Assembly: GCA_963746845.1 (NCBI GenBank)
Contig: CAVVCZ010000004.1
Span: 1,088,001-1,152,000, forward strand
Reading direction: 5' to 3'
DNA from: an uncultured Chloroflexia bacterium
GTDB taxonomy: Bacteria; Chloroflexota; Limnocylindria; Limnocylindrales; CSP1-4
DNA length: 64,000 nucleotides
Shown: piece by piece, positions 8,147-35,814 of the stretch
Layout: every line of letters begins with the position of its first letter
Numbering within the stretch: the first letter of the stretch is position 1
The notes under the pieces: generated by a model
What the model saw: only the letters and a program-made list of their open reading frames with translations
What the model was told of the DNA's origin: nothing
Database searches by the model: none
Position numbers and translations under genes: made by a program

Positions 8147-9615
8147 CGCGCGGCGTCGCCCGCGCCGAGGACGGAAGCCAGCTCGTCGACGAGGACGTCG
8201 AGAGCGATCCCGCGCGATGCCTTGACGAGGACGACGTCGCCCGGCTCCAGGATGTCGAGGAGGAGCGCGCGAGCGGCGTCCCGGTCCGGGACCCGCCTGA
8301 TCACCGTGGCGGCCATCCCGGCGTCGAGCGCCCCGGTCGCGATCCCGGCCGCTCCGTCGCCGATGACGACGAGCCGATCGGCGATCGCCGCAGCGGCCGC
8401 GCCGACGAGCCGGTGGCCGGCGTCGCTCCCCTCGCCGAGCTCGAGCATCTCGCCGAGGACGGCGATCCGCCGGCCGGGCAGCCCGGACAGCAGCTCCAGG
8501 CCCGCCTCGACCGACGCCGGAGAGGCGTTGTAGCTGTCGTCGACAATCACGACGTCGCCCGCCCGGATCAGCTGGGCGCGATGCGGCACGCTCCAGCCGG
8601 CGCGCAGCGAGGCGACGACATCGTCGAGCGCCAGACCGAACGCGAGGCCCGTCGCAGCGGCCGCGAGCGCGTTGTGCACCGCGAGCCGCCCGAGGGTCGG
8701 GATGACGACCCGTCGTCGACCCGCGTCAGTGACGGCGTCGAATGTCATCCCGTCGATGCCCCGGGAGGCGACCGCCTCCGCGCGCACGTCGGCGTCCGGC
8801 GCGAACCCGTAGGTCACCACCCGTGCGCGCGTCCGCGCCGCCATCCGCCGGACCCGCTCGTCGTCGGCGTTGAGGATCGCGACCCCGTCCGACGGGAGCG
8901 CCTCCACGAGCTCGCCCTTCGCCTGTTCGACCGCCTCGATCGACCCGATCCGCGACAGGTGGACCGGCTGGACGGCCGTCACGACCCCGATCTCGGGTCG
9001 CCCGATCCGGGCGAGGTCCGCGATCTCGCCGCCGACATACATCCCCATCTCGAGCACGGCGGCACGGTGCTCCGAGCGGAGCCGGAGGACGGTCAGCGGC
9101 AGCCCGATCTCGTTGTTCAGGTTGCCCTCGTTGCGGAGCGTCGGCAGCGCGGCCCCGAGGACCGTGGCAATGGCCTCCTTCGTCGAGGTCTTCGCGATCG
9201 ACCCGGTGACGCCGACCACGAGCGGGTCGAACCTGGAGCGCCACGCGGTCGCCACGGCCTGGAGCGCGCGCAGCGGATCGTCGACCAGGGCGATCGTCGC
9301 GTCGACGGTCGCCGGATCGATGTCGTCCGGCACGTGCGAGACGAGGACTCCCGCGGCGCCGGCGGCCAGGGCCCCGGCCATGAACCGGTGGCCGTCGGTC
9401 CGCTCGCCCGGCAGGGCCACGAACAGGTTGCCCGGCTTGACGGCGCGGGAGTCGACGGCGCCGTCGCGGATCGGTCGATCGGATCGGGCCACGAGCATGC
9501 CGCCGGTCGCGGCCGCGAGCTCGTCGGCGGTCAGCCCCCGATCGGGCCCGTCGGTTGTCGGTGACGGATCACGCCGATCGGTCACGCGGCGAAGGGTCGC
9601 ACAGGCCCCGCTCAC
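8143..9615 (-). CDS. murF: UDP-MurNAc-tripeptide--D-Ala-D-Ala ligase
   Basis: DSR, DGHRF, TGSIAKTSTK, NNEIGLP, DDSYNASP, GEMLELG, KASRG; alternative GTG start at 9585. Confidence 0.95.
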   Translation of the reverse strand: MSGACATLRRVTDRRDPSPTTDGPDRGLTADELAAATGGMLVARSDRPIRDGAVDSRAVKPGNLFVALPGERTDGHRFMAGALAAGAAGVLVSHVPDDIDPATVDATIALVDDPLRALQAVATAWRSRFDPLVVGVTGSIAKTSTKEAIATVLGAALPTLRNEGNLNNEIGLPLTVLRLRSEHRAAVLEMGMYVGGEIADLARIGRPEIGVVTAVQPVHLSRIGSIEAVEQAKGELVEALPSDGVAILNADDERVRRMAARTRARVVTYGFAPDADVRAEAVASRGIDGMTFDAVTDAGRRRVVIPTLGRLAVHNALAAAATGLAFGLALDDVVASLRAGWSVPHRAQLIRAGDVVIVDDSYNASPASVEAGLELLSGLPGRRIAVLGEMLELGEGSDAGHRLVGAAAAAIADRLVVIGDGAAGIATGALDAGMAATVIRRVPDRDAARALLLDILEPGDVVLVKASRGIALDVLVDELASVLGAGDAAR

Positions 9616-11444
9616 CGGCTCGCGGCCGTCGGCTGCGCGACGTCCGTGCTGTCCGGGAGGAGATCGGGCGTGGTGATGGCGTCGTGGGCGATCCGGCGGA
9701 ACAGCTCGAACGACATCACGGGCATCTCGAGCCGGCCCTGTTTGGCAACCGTGGGCGTGCCCTCCTCGATCCGGATCGCGACAACCAGATCCGGGTGGCC
9801 GGTCTCGCGCGCGATGTATCCGACGAACGAGTAATTGAAGATGTCTTGCTTCCAGGCGCCGCGTCCCTTGTTGGCCTTCGGATCCCAGATCTGGGCCGTA
9901 CCGGTCTTCCCGCCGACGTCATAGCCGTGGATGAGGGTGCGGTCGCGGTAGAACGGGACCGTTGTCACCACGTGGTTCATCATCCCGACCAGCGTTCTCG
10001 ACAGGTCGGGCGTGATCACCTGGCCACGCGGCGGGATCTCGCGCGCGTTGAGCCCGACCGACGCGACGACGTGCGGCTGGATCAGCTGGCCGCCGTTCAT
10101 CATCGCCGCGTAGGCCGTCGCGAGCTGCATCGGCGTCACGGCCACGCCCTGCCCGAACGAACCGTTCGCGAGGTCGATCTGGCGCCACGGCCGCGTCGCG
10201 GGGTCGCGAACGATCCCGTTGACCTCACCCGAGAGGTCGACGCCCGTCGGACTGCCGAACCCGAACCGCGTCCACGTCGAGTGGAGGAGGGTCGAGGCGG
10301 CGTTCGTGCTCTTGTCCAGCCCGATCGCGACCTTCGCCGCGACGACGTTGCGCGAGTAGGCGATCGCGTCCTGGAACGTGAGCCAGCCCATGGCCTTGTG
10401 GTCCGCATCGTCGACGTGGGTCTGGCCGCCGTCCAGCCTCAGGATTCCCGTGTCCTTCACCTTCGTCATCGTCGTGACCTCGCCCTTCTCGAGCGCGGCG
10501 ACGGTGGTGAGCATCTTGAACACGGAGCCCGGCTCGTAGACGGAGCTGACGATCGGGTCGATGAACCGCGACGGGTTGCTCGCGGCGATCGCCGCGTAGG
10601 CGTTGCCGTCGTAGGACGGATATGACGCCTCGGCGAGGATCTCGCCGGTGTACGGGTTCATCACGATGGCGGAGACCGACTTCGCCCGGTCCGCGGCCCA
10701 CGCGGCGAGGATCTCCTGCTCCACCGACAGCTGGAGGCCGGCGTCGATCGTGAGACGCAGGTCCTCGCCCGGCGCACCGGCATCCTCGACCACCGCCGTG
10801 TCGGGGATCTGGCGCGCGGCGATGTCCCGCTGGGCCTGGACGACCCTCGGCCGCCCGGCGAGCTGCTCCTGGTAGTACTGCTCGACGCCGTACTGGCCGA
10901 CGCCCTCGCGGTTGACGAAGCCGAGGAGCTTCGCAGCGAGCGTCGTGTTCGGCGCACCGCCCGGCTGCGGATAGACGCGGACCGGCTCCGGCTCGAGGCT
11001 GAGGCCCTTCAGGCGGCCGCCCGTGATCGCGGCCTGGATCTGGCCGGCCACGGTCGTGTCGAGCGCGTGGGCGAGGATGACGTACTTCCGCTCGGAGGTC
11101 TCACGATCGGTCAGCGTCTGGACATCCTCGCCGGTGAGGCCGAGGATCGAGACGAGGTCGGCGGCGACGGCCCGTCGGGTGACCGCGTCGATCTCGGACG
11201 GGGTGGAGACGAGGCGCTGTCGCTCGATCGTCGTGGCGAGGACGACGACCCCGGTCCGATCGTAGATGTCGCCCCGCCGGCTCGGTGTCGGCTCGCGCAT
11301 CGTGGTCTGCTGGAGGGCCTCGTCGGCGAGGCGGTCGCGCTGGCCCACCTGCCAGTACGCGAGGCGGGCGAGCAGCGCCGATCCGACCGTTGCGAAGACG
11401 ATCAGGAGGAACAGCGAGCGACGGCGCGAATCGGTGCGACCCAT
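9612..11444 (-). CDS. ftsI: Class B PBP (FtsI/PBP2)
   Basis: N-terminal TM helix, RGDIYDR, EPGSVFK (SxxK), SRN (SxN), KTGTAQ. Confidence 0.95.
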   Translation of the reverse strand: MGRTDSRRRSLFLLIVFATVGSALLARLAYWQVGQRDRLADEALQQTTMREPTPSRRGDIYDRTGVVVLATTIERQRLVSTPSEIDAVTRRAVAADLVSILGLTGEDVQTLTDRETSERKYVILAHALDTTVAGQIQAAITGGRLKGLSLEPEPVRVYPQPGGAPNTTLAAKLLGFVNREGVGQYGVEQYYQEQLAGRPRVVQAQRDIAARQIPDTAVVEDAGAPGEDLRLTIDAGLQLSVEQEILAAWAADRAKSVSAIVMNPYTGEILAEASYPSYDGNAYAAIAASNPSRFIDPIVSSVYEPGSVFKMLTTVAALEKGEVTTMTKVKDTGILRLDGGQTHVDDADHKAMGWLTFQDAIAYSRNVVAAKVAIGLDKSTNAASTLLHSTWTRFGFGSPTGVDLSGEVNGIVRDPATRPWRQIDLANGSFGQGVAVTPMQLATAYAAMMNGGQLIQPHVVASVGLNAREIPPRGQVITPDLSRTLVGMMNHVVTTVPFYRDRTLIHGYDVGGKTGTAQIWDPKANKGRGAWKQDIFNYSFVGYIARETGHPDLVVAIRIEEGTPTVAKQGRLEMPVMSFELFRRIAHDAITTPDLLPDSTDVAQPTAASR

Positions 11445-11462
11445 GGCTGATCCGTCGATGGC

Positions 11463-11846
11463 CTAGTGACTGCCGCCGACGACGACCGGCGCCGACAGCT
11501 GGGTCAGGCCGGCGTCGATCGCGAGCTTCTTGATCGCCGGCTCCTGGCTGAGCCGGTTGAGGTCGGTCATCAGCTCGGACTTGCGGACGAGGAGCGCGTC
11601 CCGCTCGGAGGTCAGGCGCTCCAGGTCGTAGCCCGTCGCCGACACCCGCATCGTCTGCGCCAGCGAGAAGAACGCGAGGACGAACGCGATGACGATCGCG
11701 CCGAGGATGACCGGGAACTGGTTCGCCCGGCGCTTCGCCCGGATCGCCCCACGGACCCGCCGCCGGGGCAGGGTCGGGACGTCGGCGACGCGGGAGCGTC
11801 GGGGCAGGAACGATGAGCGAGGGCGGGCCCCCGAGTAGACCGCCAC
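11463..11846 (-). CDS. ftsL: FtsL-like cell division protein
   Basis: Basic N-terminus, one TM helix, then coiled coil (LERLTSERDALL...ELMTDL); immediately upstream of ftsI; GTG overlaps the TAG of the 66-aa ORF. Confidence 0.7.
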   Translation of the reverse strand: MAVYSGARPRSSFLPRRSRVADVPTLPRRRVRGAIRAKRRANQFPVILGAIVIAFVLAFFSLAQTMRVSATGYDLERLTSERDALLVRKSELMTDLNRLSQEPAIKKLAIDAGLTQLSAPVVVGGSH

Positions 11847-12046
11847 TAGTCGCCCAGGAGGAAGCGAAGGCGCGGAGCCCGGGGATCGAGGAACGACAGC
11901 GGGTCGACTGGCTGGGCGATCCCGAACCCGTCGCCGTCGGGCTCGTCGGCGGCGGGGTTGTGGCGGGCGACGGCCTGACGCTCGTGGATCTCGTGCTGGC
12001 GCCGGCCGTACGACCTCCGTCGGCTGTTCTGATGACGCTTGCTCAC
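11846..12046 (-). CDS. Hypothetical 66-aa basic protein inside the dcw operon
   Basis: Strong SD (GAGAGGAGG) upstream of GTG; its TAG overlaps the ftsL GTG (TAGTG). Confidence 0.65.
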   Translation of the reverse strand: MSKRHQNSRRRSYGRRQHEIHERQAVARHNPAADEPDGDGFGIAQPVDPLSFLDPRAPRLRFLLGD

Positions 12047-12084
12047 GATGAGTCCTCCTCTCTCCGCTCGATGGATGGACGTGT

Positions 12085-13032
12085 TCAGGCAGCCAGGCGC
12101 TCGGCGGCCCGCAGACGGGCGCTCCGGGCACGCGGGTTGACGGCGATCTCCGTCGCCGTCGGGGTCAGGGATGGGCGGGTGACGAGCCGCAGCCGCGGGT
12201 TCCGGCCGCAGACGCAGACCGGCAGCTCGGGCGGGCAGATGCAGCCCCGGCGTTCGGCGGCGATGAACCGCTTGACGATTCGGTCCTCGAGCGAGTGGTA
12301 GCTGAGGACGACGAGCCGGCCGCCCGGCCGCAGGAGGTCGACCGCGGCGGCCAGCCCCTCCTGGAGCGCGTCCAGCTCCGCGTTGACGGCGATCCGGAGC
12401 GCCTGGAAGACGCGGGTCGCGGGATGGATCCGGCGACGGACGCGGGGATTGCCGGGCGCGACCCGCTCGACGAGGGCGGCGAGCTCCTCGGCCGTCGCGA
12501 CCGGGGCCGTCGCGCGCGCCGCGACGATCGACCGGGCGATCCGCGCCGCCTGCGGCTCCTCGCCGTAGCGACGGAAGAGCGCCGTCAGCTCCGCGGTGTC
12601 GAGCGTCGCGAGGAGCTCCGCGGCCGGGACGCCGCGCGACGTGTCGAACCGCATGTCCAGCGGTCCGCCGGTGCGGAACCCGAACCCGCGCTCGCGATCC
12701 GCGAGCTGGAAGCTCGACAGCCCGAGGTCGAACAGGAGGCCGTCGACGGCTTCGAACCCGGCATCCGGGGCCACGGTCCGCAGCTCGCGGAAGTTCGCCT
12801 GGCGCAGGACCAGGCGGTCGCCGAAGCGACGTTGGAGGCGACCGGCGACTCTGGCGATGGCCGCCTCATCGGCGTCGAGGCCGAGGAGGCGGCCATCAGG
12901 CTCGGTCGCCTCCAGGATCCGTTCGGTGTGCCCACCGCCGCCGAGGGTGGCGTCGATCTGCAGGCTGCCGGGAGCTGGAGCGAGCATCGACAAGACCTCC
13001 TCCACCAGCACCGGCATGTGCCCTTCCTGCAT
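12085..13032 (-). CDS. rsmH: 16S rRNA m4C1402 methyltransferase
   Basis: HMPVL, DATLGGGGH, DLGLSSFQL, LDMR, HPATRVFQALRI, YHSLEDR, NPRARSA. Confidence 0.97.
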   Translation of the reverse strand: MQEGHMPVLVEEVLSMLAPAPGSLQIDATLGGGGHTERILEATEPDGRLLGLDADEAAIARVAGRLQRRFGDRLVLRQANFRELRTVAPDAGFEAVDGLLFDLGLSSFQLADRERGFGFRTGGPLDMRFDTSRGVPAAELLATLDTAELTALFRRYGEEPQAARIARSIVAARATAPVATAEELAALVERVAPGNPRVRRRIHPATRVFQALRIAVNAELDALQEGLAAAVDLLRPGGRLVVLSYHSLEDRIVKRFIAAERRGCICPPELPVCVCGRNPRLRLVTRPSLTPTATEIAVNPRARSARLRAAERLAA

Positions 13033-13122
13033 CTCTCCTCCACCGTTCGACGATCGGATCCCGAGCGGACCCTGGAAGCGCATGTGGTTCGTCCGCCGGC
13101 AGGCTGCCGGTGGACGCTGCCC

Positions 13123-13551
13123 TCAGATCCCGAGGCCTCCGATGGCCTCGGCGAGGGCGGCCGGATCCTCGAGGCTCCGGCGATACGGCTCCCATCGATC
13201 GGGAGCCCAGATCTCGGCGTGGTCGCGGGTGCCGACGACCACGGCTTCCGAGCCGAGGCCCGCCATCTCCCGGAGATAGCCCGGGAGCAGGACGCGGCCC
13301 TGACCGTCGAGGGTCGTCTCGACCGCGCCGGCGAAGATGAAGCGCGAGAACCGGCGAGCGTTCTCGTCGGTGACCGGGAGGGTCGCGACCTTCTCCGCGA
13401 GGGCGTCCCAGCCGGTCCGGGTGTGGATCGCCAGGCACGCGTCGAGCCAGCGTGAGACGACGAGCCCCGCGTCCAACTGGGCGCGGAAGCGCGAAGGGAC
13501 GGCGAGCCGCCCCTTGTCGTCCACCGAGTGCCGGTACTCGCCGGTGAACAC
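13123..13551 (-). CDS. mraZ: Transcriptional regulator MraZ
   Basis: MFTGEYRHSVDDKGR and DGQGR motifs; first gene of the dcw operon. Confidence 0.97.
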   Translation of the reverse strand: MFTGEYRHSVDDKGRLAVPSRFRAQLDAGLVVSRWLDACLAIHTRTGWDALAEKVATLPVTDENARRFSRFIFAGAVETTLDGQGRVLLPGYLREMAGLGSEAVVVGTRDHAEIWAPDRWEPYRRSLEDPAALAEAIGGLGI

Positions 13552-25498: not shown

Positions 25499-27174
25499 AC
25501 GGTGATCAGCTCGCGATGGACGCCGAACGCGCTCCGGAGCCGATCGCTGATCTCGCCGACGGTGGCGTGGGCCTTGACGGCGTCGATGATCGGCGGCAGC
25601 AGGTTGTCCGTGCCCCGGGCGGCGGCCTCGAGACGGTCGAGCGACGCCCCCCAGGCCGCCGCATCCCGCTCGGCGCGAACACGACGGACCCGTTCGACCT
25701 GGCGGCGCTCCCCTTCGGGATCGATCCGCTGGATCGGCGCCTTCGCCTCACCGGCCCCGTCGTCGCGGAACGTGTTGACCCCGACGACGACGAGATCGCC
25801 CCGCTCGATCGCCTGCTGGACCCGGTAGGCCGACTCCTGGATCTGGCGCTGCTGGAAGCCGCCCTCGATCGCGGCGAGGGTTCCGCCCATCGCGTCGATC
25901 TCCTCCAGGTAATCGAGGGCCGCGCGCTCGAGCTGCGTCGTCAGCGTCTCGACGAAGTACGAGCCGGCCAGCGGATCCGGCGTCTCGGTCACGCCGCTCT
26001 CGTGGGCGAGGATCTGCTGGGTGCGGAGCGCCAGCCGGGCCGAGGCCTCCGTCGGAAGGGCAAGGGCCTCGTCGCGGGCGTTCGTGTGGAGGCTCTGGGC
26101 GCCGCCGAGCACGGCCGCGAGCGCCTGGACGGTCGTCCGCACGACGTTGTTGTCGATCGACTGAGCCGTGAGGCTGGAGCCGGCCGTCTGGACGTGGAAC
26201 CGGCACGCCATCGAACGTTCGTTCGAACTGCCGAAGCGATCCCGCACGATCCGGGCCCACAGCCGACGGGCGGCCCGGAACTTCGCGACCTCCTCGAACA
26301 GCTCCGACCAGGCCGCGAAGAAGAAGCTCAGGCGGGGGGCGAACTCGTCGATGTGCAGGCCCCGGGCCACCGCGGCCTCGGAGTAGGCGATCGCGTCGGC
26401 GAGGGTGAACGCGAGCTCCTGCGCGGCGGTCGCCCCCGCCTCCCGCATGTGGTAGCCCGAGATCGAGATCGTGTTCCAGCGGGGCAGCTCGCGCGAGCAG
26501 AACTCGAAGATGTCAGTCACGAGGCGCATCGACGCCGCCGGCGGGTAGATCCACGTCCCGCGGGCGATGTACTCCTTGAGGATGTCGTTCTGGGTCGTGC
26601 CCGCGATCCGGTCACGGGCGACCCCCTGCCCCTCGGCCGCGGCGACGTACAGGGCGAGGAGGATCGGCGCCGTCGCGTTGATCGTCATCGACGTGCTGAC
26701 CTCGTCGAGCGGCAGGCCCGCGAGGAGGATCTCCATGTCCGCGAGGCTGCTGATCGGCACCCCGACCCGGCCGACCTCGCCCGACGCCTCGGGCGCGTCC
26801 GAGTCGTAGCCCATCTGGGTCGGGAGGTCGAACGCGACCGACAGCCCGGTCTGGCCCTGCTCGAGGAGGTATCGGAAGCGCTGGTTCGTCTCCTCGGCCG
26901 TCGCGAAGCCCGCGTACTGGCGCATCGTCCAGAGGCGGCTGCGGTACATCGTCGGCTGGACGCCGCGCGTGAACGGCGGCTCCCCGGGGAAGCCGAGGTC
27001 GCGATCGGAGTCGAACTCGATCGCCTCGAGGTCCGCCGCGGTGTACAGGTCGGCGATCTCCAGGTCGGAGCTGGTCGCGAACCGGTCGCGCCGCTCCGGG
27101 GCGGCCTTGAGCGCCCGCGCGCGGGCCGTCGAGCGCCAGCGCTCGAGGGCGTCGCCCGGCCGCTCCTCGGTCAC
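25495..27174 (-). CDS. Methylmalonyl-CoA mutase, stand-alone catalytic subunit
   Basis: WTMRQYAGF (Tyr), [12 protein letters not shown] (Arg), SISGYH; no B12-binding domain. Confidence 0.93.
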
Positions 27175-27184
27175 GCGGCCGCCC

Positions 27185-27721
27185 TCATGTCAGCACGACC
27201 AGCAGGTCGCCGCGCTCGATCGTCTGGCCCTCCCCGACCGCGACACGCTCGACCGTGCCCGATCGCGGGGCGCGCAGCTCGTTCTGCATCTTCATCGCCT
27301 CCACGACGAGGAGGGTCTCTCCGGCCTGGACGATCTCACCGGCCGTGACCCGGACGGCCGCGATCCGCCCGGGAATGATCGCGCGGATGTCCGCGGGCCC
27401 GCTCGCCGTCGTCGCATCGGCCGTCCGGGTCGCCCACCGGCGGATCCTCGCGCGCCGGGCATCCTCGACCTCGAGCTCGAAGCGCCAGCCGTCGACGACC
27501 ACCTCCAGCCGCCGCGGCGCGCCGGAGGACGACGGCGCGGACGCCACCGTGCCATCGTGGTTCGCTCGGGCATCGTCGGCCGCGCGGGCGAGCCGGACAC
27601 GCCCGCGCCCGAGATCCGTGACCGTCGGCGCGTCCGCACCTCGCGGATCGAGGTCCCGGGCCTCGGCCTCCGCCGGGTGACCCGTGACGTTCAGGGGGAC
27701 GACGCGAACGATGTCGCTCAC
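27185..27721 (-). CDS. Biotin carboxyl carrier protein
   Basis: EAMKMQNE biotinylation motif; GTG start overlaps the upstream TGA. Confidence 0.9.
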
Positions 27722-29340
27722 CGGGGCCACCGATCGAGGCCCCGGATCCGACCGGCCCGGGTCCATGACGAGGGGGCGGCGACGCGCCGTGAGGGCGAGG
27801 CGCCGGCCGAGCCGTCGGGGACATCCGCGCCATGGGTCGGGACGAACCCGCCGCCGGCCGCTGCGGCCATCCACCGGGCCGCGTCGAGCGCCGCCTCTCG
27901 GGCCGGGACGAGGGCCGCCGACCACGTCTCGTCCACCCAGTCGGTCGACGGCGGTCCCGCGCGGAACGCGGCATCGTGGGCGATGAAGCGGTGGAACGGC
28001 AGGGTTGTCTGGATCCCGCCGACAGACGTCTCGTCGAGCGCCCGGGCGAGGCGGTCGAGCGCCCGATCTCGATCGGCGTCCACGACCATGATCTTCGCGA
28101 CCAGCGGGTCGTAGTCGGGCGGCACTCGGTCGCCCACCTCGACGCCTGCGTCGACCCGGATCCCCGGCCCGGCCGGCATCTCCCAGCGCGTGATCCGCCC
28201 GGGTGCCGGGGTGAAGTCCCGACCGGGGTCCTCCGCGGACAGCCGGACCTCGATCGCGTGGCGGACCGGTGTGGCAGCCTCCTCGGCGGCCCGGAGGATC
28301 CCGGCCGACAGCGGCCGGCCCGCCGCGACGCCGAGCTGCTCGCGGACGATATCGACGTCCGCGACGAGCTCGGTCACGCCGTGCTCGACCTGGAGACGCG
28401 TGTTGACCTCGAGGAACCAGAACCTGCGGTCCTCGTCGAACAGGAACTCGGCGGTCGCGGCGTTCTCCAGCCCGGCCGCCCGTGCCGCCCGGATCGCCAG
28501 GTCGTGCAGCCCGTGGCGTTCGTCCGTCGACAGCCCCGGCGCCGGCGCTTCCTCGACGAGCTTCTGGTGTCGTCGCTGGAGCGTGCAGTCGCGTTCGCCG
28601 AGCGCCACGATCGTCCCGTACCGGTCGCCGATCAGCTGGACCTCGATGTGGCGGGCCGGCCGGATCTCGCGCTCGAGGTAGACGGTCCCGTCGCCGAAGG
28701 CCGACCGCGCCTCGGCGGCCGCCGCAAGGAGAGCCGCGGGCAGCTCGGCGACGGTCGTCACTCGGCGCATCCCCCGCCCTCCCCCTCCGGCCGCGGCCTT
28801 GACGAGGAGTGGATAGCCCGTTCGCTCGGCATCGGCGACCACGGCGTCAATCTCGTCCGGGCGGTCGACCGGGGCGGGCTCGAGCGTCCCGGGCACGACC
28901 GGGACACCCACCGCCGACGCCGACCGACGGGCCGCCAGCTTGTCGCCGAGCGCCGCGATCGATGCGCTGGACGGCCCGACGAAGACGAGACCGGCGTCCT
29001 CGACGGCCCGGGCGAACCAGGCCCGCTCGGCCAGGAAGCCGTATCCCGGGTGGACGGCTCCGGCGCCGGCCGCCCGGGCCGCCTCCACGATCGCCTCGCC
29101 GCGAAGGTAGCTCTCGGTCGCCGGAGCCGGGCCGATCCGGACGGCCGCGTCGGCGGCTCGGACATGAGCGGCACGCTCGTCCGCGTCGCTGTAGACGGCA
29201 ACGGTCTCGATCCCGAGCTCGCGGCACGCGCGGATGATCCGGAGCGCGATCTCCCCGCGGTTGGCGATCAGCAGCCGGTCGAACGGTCGCTCGCCGCCGT
29301 TGTCTTTGCGTAAAGACGGCCGCGTCGTGACGTCCGTCAA
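27718..29340 (-). CDS. Biotin carboxylase subunit of an acyl-CoA carboxylase
   Basis: [40 protein letters not shown]. Confidence 0.95.
29302..29317. promoter_or_regulatory. Candidate parS palindrome, copy 1 (GTCTTTGCGTAAAGAC)
   Basis: One mismatch from the perfect palindrome GTCTTTGCGCAAAGAC; recurs at 30906 and 32449. Confidence 0.6.
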
Positions 29341-30884
29341 AGCGGGATGTTCCCGTGCTTCTTCGGCGGATTGGTATCCCGCTTGCCGGCGAAGACCTCA
29401 AGGCCGGCGATCAGCCGTGGTCTCGTCTCCGACGGCAGGATGACGTCGTCGATGTAACCGCGCGACGCGGCGATGTACGGGTTCGCGAACCGCGCCTGGT
29501 AGTCGGCGACGAGCCGGGCGTGTTCCGCGGCGGGGTCGTCGGCCCCGTCGATCTGGTCGCGGTAGATGACGTTGACCGCGCCCGCCGGACCCATGACGGC
29601 GATCTCCGCCGTCGGCCAGGCGATGTTCAGGTCGCCGCGGATGTGCTTGCTGCTCATGACGTCGTAAGCGCCGCCGTACGCCTTGCGCGTGATGACCGTG
29701 AGCTTCGGCACGGTCGCTTCGCAATACGCGAAGAGCAGCTTCGCGCCGTGGCGGATGATCCCCCCGTGCTCCTGGTCGACGCCGGGCAGGAATCCCGGGA
29801 CATCCACGAGCGTGACGAGCGGGACGTTGAAGCAGTCACAGGTGCGGACGAACCGCGCGGCCTTGGTCGACGCGGCGATGTCCAGCGCACCCGCGAGGAC
29901 CGACGGCTGCTGCGCGACGATCCCGACGCTGCGCCCCGCGAGGCGGGCGAACCCGACGATGACGTTCTGCGCCCAGTCCGGCTGGATCTCGAGGAACTCG
30001 CCGTCATCGACGACGTGCCCGATGACCTCGTGCATGTCGTATGGCTGGGCGGGATCGTCCGGGATGATCCGGTCCAGCTCGGCGTCTCGGCGATCCACGG
30101 GATCCGTCGAGGCCACCCGCGGTGGATCGTCGAGATTGTTCTGCGGCAGGAACGTCAGGATCCGCCGGGTCGTCGCGAGCGCCGACGCCTCGTCCGGTGC
30201 GGCGATGTGGGCGACCCCGCTGATCGTCGTGTGGGTCGTCGCGCCGCCGAGGCGCTCGGCATCGACGTCCTCGTGCGTCACCGCCCGGACGACGTTTGGC
30301 CCGGTGACGAACATGTAGCTCGTTCCCTCGACCATCACCGTGAAGTCCGTGATCGCGGGTGAGTAGACCGCTCCCCCGGCGCACGGCCCCATCACGACCG
30401 ACAGCTGCGGTACGACGCCGGACGCGAGCGTGTTGCGGAGGAAGATGTCGGCGTAGCCACCGAGCGACACGACGCCTTCCTGGATGCGGGCGCCACCGGA
30501 ATCGTTCAGACCGATGATCGGTGCGCCGACCTTCAATGCGAGGTCCATCACCTTGCAGACCTTGGTCGCGTACGCCTCCGACAGTGACCCGCCGAAGACC
30601 GTGAAGTCCTGGCTGAAGACGAAGACAGCTCGACCGTCGATCTGGCCATGGCCCGTTACGACACCGTCGCCGAGGATCGCGTCCGGGTCGTGATCGTCGC
30701 CGCGCGCCGTCACGTACGCGTCGATCTCCACGAACGATCCCGAATCCAGCAGCAGCTCGATCCGCTCTCGGGCCGTGAGCTTTCCCCGCGCGTGTTGCTG
30801 GTCGATCCTCGTCTGACCGCCGCCGAGAATCGCGCGCTCGCGCATCGCACCGAGCCGGGTGATACGTTCGTCGTTCGTCGACAC
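29337..30884 (-). CDS. pccB: Propionyl-CoA carboxylase carboxyltransferase subunit
   Basis: [46 protein letters not shown]. Confidence 0.92.
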
Positions 30885-30905
30885 GGGCTCGCTCCCCTCT
30901 CGGCC

Positions 30906-30921
30906 GTCTTTGCGCAAGGAC
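30906..30921. promoter_or_regulatory. Candidate parS palindrome, copy 2 (GTCTTTGCGCAAGGAC)
   Basis: In the pccB/parA intergenic region; one mismatch from consensus. Confidence 0.6.
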
Positions 30922-30988
30922 AGGGCCGTCGGGCTGGGTCGGCGGGCACCTCGCGCAATGATACGGGCGCCGGACGGCGGCGATCGAC

Positions 30989-31030
30989 ATATCCACAAAA
31001 TGGTGAACAACTCGCCTGATCTGTGGATAA
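30989..31030. promoter_or_regulatory. DnaA box cluster
   Basis: ATATCCACA (30989-30997, one mismatch), degenerate GGTGAACAA (31002-31010), perfect TGTGGATAA (31022-31030). Confidence 0.7.
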
Positions 31031-31134
31031 CCTCGGCACTCGCCCACTGGGCCGCTGGAGTAGCATCACAGGGTCCCACCCGCCACGTCGACCGTCCCGA
31101 CGCCGCAGGGAATCAGATTCGAGGTGATGCCCCG

Positions 31135-31905
31135 GTGACCCAGGTGATCGCGATCGCGAATCAGAAGGGGGGCGTCGGGAAGACGACGACGGCCATCAAC
31201 CTCGCCGGCGCGCTCGAGGAACAGGGCTTTCGCGTCCTCTGCATCGACATGGACCCGCAGGCGAATCTGACCGCGGGACTCGGGATCAACCTCAACACGG
31301 TCGATCGCTCGATGGCCGACGTCCTCGCCGATGGACGTGCGACCCTCGCCGACGTCGTCCGCCCGACCGACGGCGCCGGCATCGACATCGCGCCGGCGAA
31401 CATCGATCTCGCGAGCACCGAGGGCGAGCTGTTCACGGCGCTCGGTCGCGAGCAGGTGCTCCGCGACGCGCTGGAAGGCCAGATCGATGCCTACGACTAC
31501 GTCCTGATCGACTGCCCGCCGAACCTCGGCCTCCTGACGGTCAACGGACTCGTCGCGGCCAACAGCGTGATCATCCCGGTCCAGACGCAGTACTACGCGA
31601 TGAAGGGGCTGAACAATCTCGTCAAGGTCATCAACATGATCCGGATGAAGCTGAACCGCGACCTCCGGATCCTCGGCCTGCTGCCGACGTTCTTCGACAG
31701 CCGGACGAATCTCGCGCGCGACATGCTCGACGAGCTGCGCGTCGTCGGAGATCATCACGTCTTCAGCAGCATCGTTCGCAACACCGTGAAGCTCGGCGAA
31801 GCGCCCCTGGCCGGTCGGCCGATCACCTCCTATGCAAGCTCGTCGGAGGCGGCACGGACGTATCGGGAGCTCGCCCGGGAGGTGATCGAACTTGGCCAGG
31901 CCTGA
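31135..31905 (+). CDS. parA: ParA/Soj ATPase
   Basis: NQKGGVGKTT, DMDPQANLT, IDCPPNLG, VKLGEAP; SD GAGGTG. Confidence 0.96.
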   Translation: MTQVIAIANQKGGVGKTTTAINLAGALEEQGFRVLCIDMDPQANLTAGLGINLNTVDRSMADVLADGRATLADVVRPTDGAGIDIAPANIDLASTEGELFTALGREQVLRDALEGQIDAYDYVLIDCPPNLGLLTVNGLVAANSVIIPVQTQYYAMKGLNNLVKVINMIRMKLNRDLRILGLLPTFFDSRTNLARDMLDELRVVGDHHVFSSIVRNTVKLGEAPLAGRPITSYASSSEAARTYRELAREVIELGQA

Positions 31906-32902
31906 CTTCCGCGCAGCGGCCGCCCGTCGCCTGTCCGAAGATCGCGAGCTGTCGCCCTCGATCATCAGCCTGCTGACGTCCGACAACGTCGGCCGGAGCG
32001 TCGGCGTCAAGGTCATCCCCGTCGACCGGATCGAATCCAACCCCCAGCAGCCGCGGATGGTCTTCGACGAGACGGCAATGCACGAGCTCGCCGGGTCGAT
32101 CCGCGAACATGGCGTCCTCCAGCCGATCCTCGTCCGGCCACTCGGTGAGAACCGGTTCCAGCTCATCGCCGGGGAGCGTCGGTGGCGCGCGTCGAAGGAA
32201 GCGGGGCTCGCGACGATCCCTGCCCTCGTCGAGGAGATCGACGACGACACGGCCCTGGAGATCTCGATCATCGAGAACCTCCAGCGGGAGGACCTGTCGC
32301 CGCTCGAAGAAGCGACGATGTACGACCGGATGATCCACGAGCACGGCTACTCCATCCGGAAGCTCGCCGACAAGCTCGGCAAGGACAAGGGCTATCTCGA
32401 GAACCGGCTGCGACTCGCCGACGCACCCGAGGAGATCCGCGAGCTGGTGTCCTTGCGCAAAGACACCCTGTCCCATGCCTACGAGCTGCTGAAGGTCCAG
32501 GACCCGAAGAAGCGGCGGAAGCTCGCGAGTCAGGTCGCGGCCGGGGAGCTGTCGCTCGTCAAGCTCCGGGAGCGGATCGAGGGCCGGCGGCCTCGAGCGG
32601 CGGTGGCCGCCGACGTCGAAACCGACGATCCGGCGCCGCGTTCGACGCCGGCGCCCGAGCCGGACGAGTCGGACGACTGGGTCTCCACGCGCCAGCGCGG
32701 TCCCCTCTCCGACGACTCCCTCCAGCAGGCCCGGCACCAGTTGAACGACGCCGTCGAAGACCTCGTCTCGGTGCTTCGATCGCCGGACGTCGTCCGGTCG
32801 ATCCCGGAGGTCGACCGGGCGAACCTCGCGAAGTACCTGACGATCGCCAAGCTCAAGCTCGAGAACGCGATCGCGGTCGTCCGATCCGGGACATCCGAGT
32901 AG
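31892..32902 (+). CDS. parB: ParB/Spo0J CTPase DNA-binding protein
   Basis: NPQQPR, GVLQPI, AGERRWRA, IIENLQREDL, HTH; TTG start with GGAGG. Confidence 0.95.
   Translation: MARPDFRAAAARRLSEDRELSPSIISLLTSDNVGRSVGVKVIPVDRIESNPQQPRMVFDETAMHELAGSIREHGVLQPILVRPLGENRFQLIAGERRWRASKEAGLATIPALVEEIDDDTALEISIIENLQREDLSPLEEATMYDRMIHEHGYSIRKLADKLGKDKGYLENRLRLADAPEEIRELVSLRKDTLSHAYELLKVQDPKKRRKLASQVAAGELSLVKLRERIEGRRPRAAVAADVETDDPAPRSTPAPEPDESDDWVSTRQRGPLSDDSLQQARHQLNDAVEDLVSVLRSPDVVRSIPEVDRANLAKYLTIAKLKLENAIAVVRSGTSE
32449..32464. promoter_or_regulatory. Candidate parS palindrome, copy 3, inside parB (GTCCTTGCGCAAAGAC)
   Basis: Extends to the 22-bp near-palindrome GGTGTCCTTGCGCAAAGACACC (32446-32467). 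Confidence 0.6.
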
Positions 32903-32924
32903 CCGATCCCCCACCCGGGGTCCA

Positions 32925-32951
32925 GAAGCCGGCGCCACGGGCGCCGGCTTC
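32925..32951. terminator. Hairpin between convergent parB and UbiA-family genes
   Basis: GAAGCCGGCGCC-ACG-GGCGCCGGCTTC, perfect 12-bp stem. Confidence 0.7.
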
Positions 32952-32970
32952 GTCGTCGAGGGGCCGAGGA

Positions 32971-33825
32971 TCAGACGACGACGGCCACCCACAGGACGCC
33001 GAGCACCGCGAGCGCGACGGCCTCGACCTGCCACGCTCGCTCGCGGGCCGGGCTGGACCGGCGGCCTCCGGACCAGACGGCGGCGGCGACGGGGATGATC
33101 CCCGCGACGGCGATGGCCGCGAGCGCCGCCGACCCGGCACCGGCGATCGAGGCCGACACCCCCGCGATGACCGCGACCGCTCCGTAGAGGACGGCCATGA
33201 CCCGGGCCGCCCGCCCCGGCCCAAGCTCAGCAGCGACGGACGTACGGCCGGCTGCCCGATCGCGCTCGACGTCCACGAGGCTGTTGCCGATCGCGAGCGC
33301 CGCGCCCGCCGCGACGGCCGCCGGAACCAGGGCCGCGAAGGCCGCCGGGAGCCCGCCGGTCGCTCCCAGCCAGCCGTAGACCGGGAGGATCGGGATCCCC
33401 ACCGCGAACGGCAGCCACGACCAGGCCGTTCCCTTCAGCCACAGGTCATACGCCAGCCCGATCCCGATCACGACGATCGAGAGGGCGGCGATCGCCGGGC
33501 TGACGCTCGCCCCGAGCACGACGCCCGTGGCGAACAGGACGGTGGCGACGATCCGCGCCATGGTGGGATCGACGAGGCCGTCCGGGATCGGCTTGCCCCC
33601 CTTGCGACCGGCATCGGCCGGCGCGTCGACGATGTCGTTCACGACCCCGATCCCGAGCTGGAGCAGCGTCATCGCCAGACCCAGCCGGATCGCCAACCCC
33701 GGCCCTGCCCCGGCCACGAGCGCGACGGCGGCACACACGACGCCGTCGAGCACGGACGGGAAGGGGTGGCTGAGCCGGACCCAGCCCAGGAGACGCGTCC
33801 CGGCCGGCCGGCCGTCGGCCGGCAC
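32971..33825 (-). CDS. UbiA family prenyltransferase
   Basis: RLSHPFP, NDIVDAPAD..KPIP, YDLWLK, NSLVDVERD; multi-TM; start approximate. Confidence 0.85.
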   Translation of the reverse strand: MPADGRPAGTRLLGWVRLSHPFPSVLDGVVCAAVALVAGAGPGLAIRLGLAMTLLQLGIGVVNDIVDAPADAGRKGGKPIPDGLVDPTMARIVATVLFATGVVLGASVSPAIAALSIVVIGIGLAYDLWLKGTAWSWLPFAVGIPILPVYGWLGATGGLPAAFAALVPAAVAAGAALAIGNSLVDVERDRAAGRTSVAAELGPGRAARVMAVLYGAVAVIAGVSASIAGAGSAALAAIAVAGIIPVAAAVWSGGRRSSPARERAWQVEAVALAVLGVLWVAVVV

Positions 33826-33829
33826 GGGG

Positions 33830-34195
33830 TCAGACGTAGACGAGCTCGTTGAAGTTCGCGACGAGGTACTCGATGAGCCGATCGCGGCCATCCTTGACCT
33901 GCGAGCGGATCCCCGGCACGAGCACGAACAAGGTGATCGCGGGGACCATCAGGCTGCCGTCCCGGTCCCGCCCGACCACGGCCGGAGCGCCACCACCAGA
34001 AGCGAACACCCGTTCGAAACCTGCCTCGTCCAACCGGGCGGCTCGGCGGAAGTCCCCGACCACCTGCCGGACGCCACGGCGGATCGCGACGTCGCGCATC
34101 AGCTCGGCGGCCCAGGCGTCGATCTGCTCGTCGCTCTGCTCAGCGAGACGGGCTCGATACTCCTTGGGATCGGCGGACAGGCCGGACGTCGCCAC
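33830..34195 (-). CDS. Hypothetical protein (about 121 aa)
   Basis: SD AGGAGAG before GTG; globular-looking sequence ending NFNELVYV. Confidence 0.75.
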   Translation of the reverse strand: MATSGLSADPKEYRARLAEQSDEQIDAWAAELMRDVAIRRGVRQVVGDFRRAARLDEAGFERVFASGGGAPAVVGRDRDGSLMVPAITLFVLVPGIRSQVKDGRDRLIEYLVANFNELVYV

Positions 34196-34245
34196 GGGCT
34201 CTCCTGGGGTTCGGATCGCCGGCAGTATGCCAGAGATCGAGGCCG

Positions 34246-35814
34246 TCAGGCCCCGTCGGAGGGGGTCGGGCCGGGTGCCGAGCGGGCCACCGGAAGCGCG
34301 GCCCAGCGCGCCAGCTCGGCGGTCTGGGCGGCTTCCCGGCTGCCCTCCGGCCACTCGTTGAACAGGTCCGTCAACCTCCGGCCCAACGGCCCCGGCCGAC
34401 CGATCTCGGGCTGCTCCGCGACCATCGCCCCGAGCGCGGCCTCGCAGGTCGCGGTCAGCGCCTGGATGCCGTCCCGGTTGGGCCGCCCGGTCGTGGGGAT
34501 CGGGTCGCCGACCCGGACCGTGATCCGCCGGCCGAACCCCAGCCACGACGTCCCCGCGATCGCGAGCGGGACGAGCGGCACGCCCTCACGAAGCGCGAAG
34601 TACGCCGGCCCATCCTCGAGCGGGCGCAGGTGCGACTCGAACGGCTGGATCCTGCCCTCCCCCGCGATCGCGATCACCCGCCCCGCAGCGATCGACCAGT
34701 GCACGCGCCGGGTGGCCTCGAGCAGGTCGCCCTTGCCCGGTCGATACGGGATCGTGGCGCCGGTCCAGTTCATCAGACGGTTCCGGCCACCCACCGTCAT
34801 GTCCTCCTCGCGCGGTCCGAAGAACATCAGGCGGGGGCGGATCGGGAGCGTCGCCATGAGGACGAACGGGTCGATCCAGCTCAGGTGGTTGAAGCAGTAG
34901 ATGGCCGGCGTGCCCGGCAGACGCTCACGTCCGACGAGCCGTGGCCGGAACAGCGCGCGACAGACCACCCAGGCGCCGGCCCGGCTGACCATCGTGCGGA
35001 TCCAGCGACGCCACGGGTGGATGGTGTCGGCCGGGGGAGCGGGGGCCGCGGCGGCACGGCCCGCGGACGAGGGTGGCGACGAGCGTGACGACGAGCGTGA
35101 CGGCTGGACACGGGGTCGTCCGGCGGCGGTGACCTGCGCCGGATCGAGGTCCGCCAGGCGATCGAGAACGAGGTCGGCATGCTCGGCCGCCCCGGGCGCC
35201 GGCGGCACGGAGTCGTTCGGCACGAGGACGGTCGTCATCCCGGCCGCCTGGCCGGCCCGAAGGCCGTTGAGCGAGTCCTCGACGACCAGGGTGCACTCCG
35301 GATCGGCCGACAGGCGACGGGCGGCCTCCAGGAACACGTCCGGCGCCGGCTTGCCGTGCTCGACCTCGTCGGACGAGACGATCACCCCGAACGTGTCGGT
35401 CAGCCCGGTCGCGGCGAGGGCTGCGTCGATCACGGCCCGATGCGACGACGACGCCAGCGCGACCGGGAGCGTCGCGGCGATGCGCCGGACCGCGGGCACA
35501 GCCCCGTCGATGACCGGTGGCCCCTCGTGCGCGTACCGCTCGATCATCCCGTCCACGATCGCCCGCTCGATCTCGCCCGCCGGCAGGTCGAGGCCGAGGC
35601 GGCGGCGCATGGTCTCGGACCACTGGCGAGAGTTGGCGCCCATGACGGCGTGCCGGTCGTCGACAGTCCACGTCCGTCCATGATCGGCGGCGAATGCCCG
35701 GCGGACCTCGTCCCACCAGATCTCCGAGTCGACGATCACGCCGTCGAGATCGAAGACCACCGCCTCGATCGAGTGCCGCTCCGGGGGGTCCGCGGCTGGC
35801 GCAGGCGCGCTCAG
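34246..35814 (-). CDS. HAD-IA hydrolase / PlsC-type acyltransferase fusion
   Basis: FDLDGVIVDSE, GKPAPDVF and VEDSLNG, then NHLSWID (HX4D) and GEGR in one frame; start uncertain (CTG 35814 or GTG near 35760). Confidence 0.85.
   Translation of the reverse strand: MSAPAPAADPPERHSIEAVVFDLDGVIVDSEIWWDEVRRAFAADHGRTWTVDDRHAVMGANSRQWSETMRRRLGLDLPAGEIERAIVDGMIERYAHEGPPVIDGAVPAVRRIAATLPVALASSSHRAVIDAALAATGLTDTFGVIVSSDEVEHGKPAPDVFLEAARRLSADPECTLVVEDSLNGLRAGQAAGMTTVLVPNDSVPPAPGAAEHADLVLDRLADLDPAQVTAAGRPRVQPSRSSSRSSPPSSAGRAAAAPAPPADTIHPWRRWIRTMVSRAGAWVVCRALFRPRLVGRERLPGTPAIYCFNHLSWIDPFVLMATLPIRPRLMFFGPREEDMTVGGRNRLMNWTGATIPYRPGKGDLLEATRRVHWSIAAGRVIAIAGEGRIQPFESHLRPLEDGPAYFALREGVPLVPLAIAGTSWLGFGRRITVRVGDPIPTTGRPNRDGIQALTATCEAALGAMVAEQPEIGRPGPLGRRLTDLFNEWPEGSREAAQTAELARWAALPVARSAPGPTPSDGA

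Follow-up and report, generated by a model that had tools for sequence, protein, structure and literature searches.

A putative second ParABS-type partition system with its own palindromic sites on the chromosomes of Limnocylindria

What might a set of 16-bp palindromes be doing around, and even inside, a parA-parB gene pair that has no canonical parS nearby? The question is raised by a stretch of 64,000 nucleotides from an uncultured Chloroflexia soil bacterium of the GTDB class Limnocylindria (assembly GCA_963746845.1, contig CAVVCZ010000004.1, positions 1,088,001 to 1,152,000 of the forward strand; hereafter the window), for which the original prediction had proposed a ParABS system with a non-canonical centromere. 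In the present study, we followed the palindromes and the gene pair (here parA2 and parB2, together parAB2) through the window, the whole genome and related genomes. The comparisons make it probable, in our judgement, that the palindromes are the cognate loading sites of ParB2, a private parS that we call parS2, within a second partition-type system standing beside a canonical ParAB1/parS.

The palindrome GTCTTTGCGCAAAGAC has exactly three matches at two mismatches or fewer in the window, each one mismatch from this consensus (sites 1 to 3, Table 1), where 100 shuffles of the window gave an expectation of 0.02 and never reached three (0/100). Across the whole assembly (12 contigs, 3,564,506 bases) the same three are the only matches at up to one as well as up to two mismatches, all confined to 3.2 kb around parAB2, and a fourth appears only at three mismatches (C1:158588). 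The canonical parS TGTTNCACGTGAAACA is not found in the window at three mismatches or fewer. The original prediction was thus right about the three near-perfect palindromes near parAB with one of them in parB, about the lack of a further full copy in the window (which, at two mismatches, extends to the genome), about the absence of canonical parS from the window, about the two copies in unrelated frames that both read SLRKD (sites 1 and 3), and about the recognition helix GKDKGYLENRLRL, which is present in the ParB2 translation. It is true that such a palindrome could fold into a short hairpin, and one might think of a REP-like element, a terminator hairpin, an RNA motif or another generic repeat, or of mere chance. 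We give this explanation a negligible chance, however: three copies stand against a composition-based expectation per genome of 0.011 at one mismatch (0.31 at two), their positions are conserved in two families, two of them lie in coding sequence, they are not dispersed in the genome, and no Rfam match was found at E<=0.1 in window positions 27000-35000.

The sites are conserved together with the locus. Within the genus, palindrome matches at two mismatches or fewer occur in 23 of 24 genomes, exactly three of them in 19, and a reversed-pattern control gave no match in 23/24. All ten long genus loci share the order mcm, accA, pccB, then parA2-parB2 on the opposite strand, then ubiA, and in each the three site positions are conserved. 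The genus matches listed all fall at the parAB2 locus save two in one genome, G013, which lie off the parAB2 contig (G013:C21:9442 and G013:C12:355251) and may either be genuine additional sites or stem from duplicated strains in the bin (contamination 3%). At the level of the class, matches were recovered from 44/44 genomes of family f1 and 48/50 of family f4; among the matches listed (150 of 654), every one from f1 shares a contig with parB2 and is no more than 8 kb from it. In 21 long loci we counted 61 sites, 2-5 per locus and spanning 1.6-7.8 kb, with half-site positions 1-3 and 6 invariant in 122/122 half-sites and the variation mostly at positions 4 and 5. The conservation near orthologous parAB that had been suggested as a check is therefore seen in f1 and f4, where the sites cluster at parAB2.

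Two of the sites are embedded in genes, and the manner of their preservation deserves attention. Site 1 keeps its position in 10/10 long genus loci, as a perfect palindrome in nine of them, and the accA leader that hosts it varies among 11 loci in length and sequence, with only the SLRKD codons constant (SLHKD in one). In family f3, accA has no site 1 in any of three loci, and in two of them only a few codons precede the conserved LVANRGEIA core; the leader thus appears to be dispensable. At site 3, the codons of 24 genus genes are GTG (24/24), TCC or TCT only, CGC (24/24), AAA (24/24) and GAC (24/24), and the leucine codon is TTG in all 16 genes that encode leucine there. In the rest of parB2, TTG makes up 42 of 884 leucine codons (4.8%) and AAA 19 of 303 lysine codons (6.3%). 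Site 2 belongs to the few conserved blocks of an otherwise divergent spacer in 11 genus loci. The frozen rare codons of site 3 and the constant SLRKD in a variable leader bear out the earlier suggestion of selection on the DNA, which keeps sites 1 and 3 inside two unrelated genes.

Do the palindromes, then, belong to parAB2 or to the metabolic genes beside it? They could be operators of an unrelated transcription factor for the propionyl-CoA carboxylase (pcc)/methylmalonyl-CoA operon, close to parAB2 through inherited synteny. Two of the three sites do lie at the 5' ends of pccB and accA in f1 and f4, and no sites were found at the locus in families f2 and f3, where pccB and accA are not adjacent. 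We nevertheless regard this as highly improbable. The locus of genus g6 reads mcm, parA2, parB2, ubiA, with neither pccB nor accA, yet two sites remain there: a perfect or near-perfect one between mcm and parA2, upstream of the latter, and one in parB2. No pccB orthologue was found in 4/4 g6 genomes at E<=1e-100; the same query matched f3 orthologues at about 1e-240. Conversely, pccB is located elsewhere in f3 and has no palindrome there at three mismatches or fewer. In f4, site 2 lies between a tRNA-Met gene and parA2, beside parA2 promoter elements, so that the tRNA gene separates it from pccB. Furthermore, rare codons maintain one site inside parB2 itself, the locus conserves no regulator-type gene other than parB2, and related parB genes carry variant palindromes with no pcc gene on the contigs examined. 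A restriction of the sites to the upstream regions of metabolic genes, the mark of a transcription-factor site according to the original prediction, is consequently not what the relatives display: g6 has the sites without pccB, and f3 has pccB without the sites.

Table 1. Coordinates of the palindromes, the partition genes and the adjoining features in the window
Feature	Positions	Strand	Sequence or hallmark	Context
Site 1	29302-29317		GTCTTTGCGTAAAGAC	Codons 9-13 of accA, reading SLRKD; just past the pccB stop/accA start overlap
Site 2	30906-30921		GTCTTTGCGCAAGGAC	Non-coding; divergent pccB/parA2 intergenic region
Site 3	32449-32464		GTCCTTGCGCAAAGAC	Inside parB2, codons 186-191 (V-S-L-R-K-D); helix following the recognition helix
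parA2	31135-31905	+	256 amino acids; KGGVGKTT; Pfam AAA_31 1.6e-61, CbiA 3.2e-28	Walker-type ParA/Soj-like ATPase
parB2	31892-32902	+	336 amino acids; GERRWRA, ENLQRE; helix GKDKGYLENRLRL	ParB N-terminal CTPase-type domain, helix-turn-helix, C-terminal region
DnaA-box-like inverted pair of 9-mers	30989-31030		ATATCCACA, 24 bases, TGTGGATAA	Conserved GGTGAACAACTC between the two
pccB (carboxyltransferase)	29337-30884	-	Pfam Carboxyl_trans 6.3e-195	Neighbour, not part of the system
accA (biotin carboxylase)	27718-29340	-		Start overlaps the pccB stop; hosts site 1 in its leader
accA leader	29284-29340	-	About 19 codons	Variable N-terminal stretch; hosts site 1

The two proteins carry the hallmarks of a ParAB pair. 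The end of parA2 overlaps the start of parB2, and parA2 adjoins parB2 in 10/10 genus loci, 3/3 loci of f4 and 3/3 of f3. ParB2 matches Pfam ParB_N at 4.1e-37 and HTH_ParB at 3.7e-19 (residues 133-229), and passes TIGR00180 with 173 bits against a cut-off of 58. Its GERRWRA and ENLQRE boxes are intact and are kept across all four families f1-f4. Sequence matches in the PDB are restricted to residues 37-235; the best are Noc, Caulobacter ParB and Spo0J (1e-43 to 1e-32), with Noc 7NG0 at the top, and those to KorB are weak (Pfam KorB 6.2e-05; PDB sequence 1.5e-15). The C-terminal region of ParB2 is conserved and does not align with the usual C-terminus of ParB1 from the same genome.

This ParB1 brings us to the second half of the finding, namely that the genome holds two ParB_N matches and two close ParA homologues, and the ParAB2 of the window is therefore a paralogue. 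The other pair, parA1-parB1, lies on contig C1, is followed by gyrB and stands 40 kb from dnaA; ParB1 has the usual LGRGL N-terminus, which ParB2 does not have, together with the usual C-terminus. A near-canonical parS, GGTTTCACGTGAAACC, stands 177 bases upstream of parA1 and another 20 kb away, the only two near-canonical sites of the genome, and a perfect or near-perfect parS directly upstream of parA1 was seen in all four genomes checked (the study genome and 3/3 relatives). Because canonical parS stands at parA1, ParAB1 and ParAB2 have distinct sites. Between the two pairs, sequence identity is 39-47% for the ParBs over the N-terminal and helix-turn-helix parts and 47% for the ParAs. Both ParBs share one contig in four genomes (G016, G125, G182 and G077). 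In G125, parB2 is separated from dnaA by 801,787 of 2,086,592 bases (38.4%), and in G182 by 1,234,526 of 3,116,973 bases (39.6%), each a single contig of unverified circularity. Since about 38-42% of the chromosome separates parAB2 from dnaA, the pair is not origin-proximal. The ParABS reading of the window thus stands as far as a ParAB pair with its own sites is concerned, and has to be amended in that this is the second, paralogous system of the chromosome, the canonical ParAB1/parS lying near dnaA.

Could the second system be a dead remnant of some plasmid or secondary replicon that once integrated, its genes and sites persisting without present function? There is something to be said for a foreign past: the nearest relatives outside the class are patchy (6/41 genomes in family f15), sit on short contigs with tandem site arrays, as plasmid partition modules would be expected to, and a tRNA-Met gene abuts parA2 in f3 and f4. 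Yet we consider present inertness very unlikely. ParB2 is nearly universal in Limnocylindria, with full-length orthologues in 146/151 genomes at E<=1e-45 (f1 44/44, f2 6/6, f3 47/49, f4 47/50, f5 1/1), and is retained even in streamlined genomes of 1.1 Mb. Identities of ParB2 to its orthologues from the same genus, the same family and f4 are 83, 65 and 54%, those of ParB1 92, 65 and 52%; the corresponding values are 95, 77 and 68% for ParA2 and 81, 67 and 58% for ParA1. ParAB2 is accordingly as conserved as ParAB1, and ParA2 is more conserved than ParA1. Furthermore, the codons of the sites are fixed, the catalytic motifs are preserved, and a scan of 22 neighbouring ORFs (open reading frames) showed no integrase, replication initiator or transposase. 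The tRNA-Met (CAT) genes lie directly upstream of parA2 in f4 and f3 (L063:8745-8820, L064:9070-9143, L060:6168-6241 and L062:9054-9127) but not in the window; one guess is that they mark an old integration at a tRNA gene.

In a draw of 301 Chloroflexota at E<=1e-50, ParB2 was found in 33 genomes, all of f1, f2 or f4, and in 0/268 of the other Chloroflexota. Among 1.84 billion protein representatives, a limited set of clusters aligns to ParB2 over its full length including the C-terminal region, and the remaining matches listed align only up to about residue 260. Seven of the genomes are flagged as unpublished (G010, which contributes locus L025, G102, G126, G131, G140, G146 and G157) and entered the tallies only; one of the 24 genes in the codon counts comes from G010 (L025), and no conclusion depends on the unpublished genomes.

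The ParBs just outside the class proved particularly informative. They carry helices such as GKSKGYVQNRLRL, of the type GK(S)KGYxxNRxRL, and short peptides repeated in their linkers, and these linkers hold palindromes of their own. On the metagenome contig L154, which carries parA-parB, the perfect palindrome GTCCTTACGTAAGGAC lies in the parB linker and codes for SLRKD. In L164, L165 and L166 the site reads GTTTTTGC(G/A)CAAAAAC, with 1-3 copies in the linker and one about 1.3 kb downstream; at L165:2254-2451 an in-frame 57-bp repeat of 3.5 copies in the parB linker codes for ESFL(H/R)KND repeats, with a palindrome in each unit. The palindrome GTATTTCCAGAAATAC occurs in the parB linker of L155 and in seven copies in all in L162, both in the linker and in the stretch from parA to parB, where a 72-bp unit is repeated 4.3 times in tandem (L162:2660-2970) and each unit holds a 16-bp palindrome; in L163 the linker site is GTATGTCCAGACATAC. 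Loci L155 and L162-L166 come from the above-mentioned f15, another Chloroflexota family; of its six genomes with this ParB type, four have it on short contigs. An alignment search of genome contigs with these outgroup ParBs returned mostly generic ParBs, the top six loci being Limnocylindria ParB2, and PLSDB held no close relative of the outgroup ParB, all matches listed there being below 42% identity. Together with parB2, these genes appear to form an undescribed ParB subfamily whose palindromes lie in the parB linker as in-frame repeats. In three further protein representatives (P0155, P0156 and P0158; helix GKGKGYxExRLRL), the peptide VSGRPDT is repeated in the linkers, which would fit another embedded palindrome.

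Relative to the motif of the window, the changes in the variant palindromes are symmetric in both half-sites, and a helix residue changes with the palindrome centre: E or M goes with GCGC, and Q with CCAG. Such co-variation of helix and site is suggestive, although it comes from few, related lineages and is not a statistical test. As for the specificity residues, Jalal et al. (2020, PMC7383237) give Q162, G170, K171, S172, N178 and R204 as parS contacts of Caulobacter ParB conserved in both ParB and Noc, describe R173 and G201 as invariant among ParB orthologues, and report that Noc specificity was switched through substitutions at positions 173, 179, 184 and 201. With numbers transferred through a gap-free ParB1/ParB2 alignment and not from a structure, ParB2 has G170, K171, D172, K173, N178, R179, D184, S201 and Y204. 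Four contact positions consequently differ from the residues given there, D172, K173, S201 and Y204 standing in place of S, R, G and R. ParB2 thus has neither of two marks of a canonical chromosomal parS-type ParB, R173/G201 and an origin-proximal gene.

The narrow base of the co-variation and the alignment-derived numbering are two reservations about the parS2 reading, and several further points weigh against it. No palindrome was found at three mismatches or fewer in the parAB2 genes or their immediate flanks in f2 (6 loci) and f3 (3 loci), families in which ParB2 keeps the same GKDKGYxENRLRL recognition helix and the next helix reads ERSD or QRYD in place of SLRKD (SAAY in f3). The co-occurrence of palindrome and KDKGY helix, another check that had been put forward, hence holds in f1 and f4 and fails in f2 and f3, where the helix is kept and recognisable sites are lacking; as the helix is thus also present where the site is not, some function of ParB2 may be independent of the palindromes. 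In addition, parB2 stands without an adjacent parA2 in 3/6 f2 loci, no Pfam or PDB sequence match was obtained for ParB2 beyond residue 235, which leaves it without a match to the canonical ParB dimerisation domain, and the non-origin position of parAB2 is unusual for a chromosomal centromere. Finally, two of the three sites abut metabolic genes in f1 and f4, so a regulatory role is possible.

We looked for replacement sites in the two families. De novo scans for palindromes at parAB2 in f2 and f3 turned up neither a shared motif nor a replacement, and the degenerate pattern GTCNNTGCGCANNGAC at one mismatch or fewer stayed at control level in five genomes each of f2 and f3. Matches at two mismatches in f2 were rejected as true sites; they look like chance, falling within an isoleucyl-tRNA-synthetase-like ORF and an unrelated spacer. 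Likewise, GAACYTCGCGARGTTC in f3 parB2 was discarded as a replacement, being explained by NLAKF codons, with no more copies seen in the loci. Some side observations from these families may be recorded here. All six f2 loci conserve the motif GATTCTCCCACACC in the spacer upstream of parB2, and in L044, L045 and L049 (genomes of 1.1-1.4 Mb) parB2 is alone and divergent from mcm. In the f3 genus g24, 3-4 degenerate copies (GTCNNTGCGCANNGAC, 0-1 mismatch) are found at a locus of pepA, an AddA-like helicase-nuclease and an MFS transporter, on contigs other than those of parAB2 (L055:1462-6519, L056:7078-10184), and single degenerate copies occur at the helicase/MFS junction in G044 and G052; the cluster could be a displaced site cluster, or chance. 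In the study genome, the helicase orthologue is 650 kb away from parAB2 and carries no site.

The rival that deserves most thought, even if we hold it unlikely, takes ParB2 to be chiefly a KorB-like site-specific transcriptional regulator, with the palindromes as operators through which it controls the divergent promoters of parAB2 and mcm/pcc, partition being secondary or lost. Site 2 would suit such an operator: it falls in the region of these divergent promoters, 21 bases from the GTG with which pccB starts (30884) and 214 bases ahead of parA2, and in several relatives it is next to a -10-like element of pccB. The parB2-mcm linkage persists even in the 1.1-Mb f2 genomes, half of the f2 loci have no parA2 next to parB2 as said, and the weak Pfam and PDB matches to KorB point the same way. 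Sites 1 and 3, on the other hand, are in coding regions far from promoters, the accA start overlapping the pccB stop, and g6 keeps its sites with no pcc genes at the locus and pccB undetected in four g6 genomes at the threshold given above. ParA2 is more conserved than ParA1, the relatives carry tandem centromere-like arrays, and the matches to chromosomal ParB/Noc are far above those to KorB. Partition and KorB-like regulatory roles are not mutually exclusive.

Returning to the parS2 reading, it rests on the uniqueness of the sites, their conservation, the selection on DNA, their independence of pcc, the co-variation with related ParBs and the intact ParB and ParA motifs. From these, and by analogy with known systems, we infer binding by ParB2, CTP (cytidine triphosphate) clamping, partition activity and the origin of the system, as follows. 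ParB2 dimers would recognise the consensus GTC(T/c)(T/g)TGC|GCA(A/c)(A/g)GAC through their diverged helix-turn-helix, would close as CTP-dependent clamps and would spread across the locus, over roughly 3 kb, into a single nucleoprotein complex, which ParA2 would position or segregate without involving ParAB1. Given the place of site 2 between the divergent genes, in their promoter region, autoregulation of parAB2 by the complex is probable, and the neighbouring mcm/pcc operon may be dampened as well. As a whole, the system looks like a plasmid or secondary-replicon partition module that became fixed in the chromosome of the ancestor of the class. The idea of a ParB and a palindrome that belong together, are specific to the lineage and would escape scans for canonical parS is thus supported, within the reach of sequence comparison, by uniqueness, by positional conservation in f1 and f4, by codon selection, by g6 and by the related ParBs.

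The promoter of parA2 holds a further element of interest. Upstream of its TAGCAT -10-like element sits the inverted DnaA-box-like pair of Table 1, of which TGTGGATAA is one of only two perfect matches in the genome to the DnaA box consensus TTATCCACA and is invariant in 11/11 genus loci; TGTGGATAAC was also found in 2/3 f4 loci. The pair may reflect DnaA control of parAB2 or a relic origin. Since clusters of DnaA boxes (at least three within 600 bp, at one mismatch or fewer) were found nowhere in the genome, the parAB2 locus cannot be called an origin, and as GC skew is flat on the five largest contigs, neither origin nor terminus can be placed. Outside the window, a second inverted box-like pair (TTATCCACG ... 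TGTGGACAA) with the same 32-33 base spacing and a third AATCCACG between its 9-mers lies at C1:280809-280849 of the study genome, 73 kb from dnaA.

A bolder picture, which we offer tentatively and as rather doubtful, is that two orthogonal centromeres organise the chromosomes of Limnocylindria, with parS/ParAB1 at the origin and parS2/ParAB2 some 140-150 degrees from it, at 18 kb from mraZ-dcw. The latter would derive from a plasmid-type module with palindromes inside parB, would position a non-origin region or mark a fused former second replicon, and might be timed by DnaA via the boxes in the parA2 promoter. If true, this two-centromere layout would be a chromosome-segregation arrangement undescribed in any cultivated model. 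The surroundings of parAB2 are otherwise those of housekeeping genes, namely sucC, methylmalonyl-CoA epimerase, mcm, BCCP, accA, pccB and ubiA, and the start of the mraZ-dcw division and cell-wall cluster (mraZ, rsmH (MraW), a PBP transpeptidase and a Mur ligase) lies on the minus strand at window 8143-13551.

Why does it matter? Standard parS scans together with the generic 'ParB/RepB/Spo0J' annotation would hide two complete ParAB pairs per chromosome in a class of abundant soil and freshwater Chloroflexota, and with them a putative new centromere sequence, altered specificity residues and an undescribed linker-palindrome ParB subfamily. If the predicted binding by ParB2 is true, GTCTTTGCGCAAAGAC, GTTTTTGCGCAAAAAC, GTATTTCCAGAAATAC and GTCCTTACGTAAGGAC would belong to natural orthogonal ParB/site pairs, usable for studies of ParB specificity evolution and for DNA-locus labelling. 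The finding also raises the testable question of what role a non-origin centromere plays on a single chromosome. None of these four 16-mers occurs in the searchable literature, supplements left aside; no paper was found joining 'Limnocylindria' and 'chromosome segregation', and our literature searches on ParB/parS in Chloroflexi and on a second or paralogous ParABS returned nothing relevant.

How, finally, does ParAB2 compare with the systems already described? Its kind is known, for it is a ParABS; what appears to be new is the site sequence, the altered specificity residues, the new C-terminus, the class-wide coexistence with a canonical system on one chromosome and the membership of ParB2 in the subfamily with palindromes inside parB. 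With chromosomal ParABS it shares the parA-then-parB operon, the CTP-binding-type motifs and helix-turn-helix, and 16-bp palindromes clustered at the operon with one in parB, just as B. subtilis has a parS inside spo0J. It departs from the chromosomal systems with parS TGTTNCACGTGAAACA in its palindrome, in residues 172/173/201/204, in the N-terminal peptide and the C-terminal region, in its non-origin locus and in coexisting with a canonical system on the same chromosome.

KorB of plasmid RK2 is a ParB-family CTP-dependent clamp that acts both as partition protein and as global repressor. ParB2 resembles it as a member of the same family with palindromic operators in or near promoters and a possible dual role, and through its weak Pfam and PDB matches; it differs in that these matches are far weaker than those to chromosomal ParB/Noc, in that no KorA-like partner was seen, and in that its 2-5 sites lie at one locus. 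Noc, the ParB paralogue of nucleoid occlusion with its NBS sites, offers another parallel. Like ParB2, it is a chromosomal ParB paralogue, one whose specificity was changed through substitutions at the four positions named above. ParB2 nevertheless stays below the cut-off of the Noc model TIGR04285 (197 bits, cut-off 315), comes with a ParA of its own, has its sites at one locus rather than scattered, and carries K173, R179, D184 and S201 where Noc has Q, K, K and R.

The closest parallel in layout may be sought in multipartite genomes with replicon-specific ParABS, such as ParAB2/parS2 of Vibrio cholerae and the pairs of Burkholderia and Deinococcus, and in V. cholerae strains with fused chromosomes (PMC6284228, PMC5603330 and PMC12219848). 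The replicon-specific systems likewise have two orthogonal ParB/site pairs per cell, the second with plasmid-like relatives, and the fused V. cholerae strains likewise carry two partition systems on one chromosome after fusion. In Limnocylindria, by contrast, no second replication initiator was seen near parAB2 among the 22 ORFs scanned, both systems share one contig in four genomes, and the arrangement is found class-wide and not in sporadic isolates.

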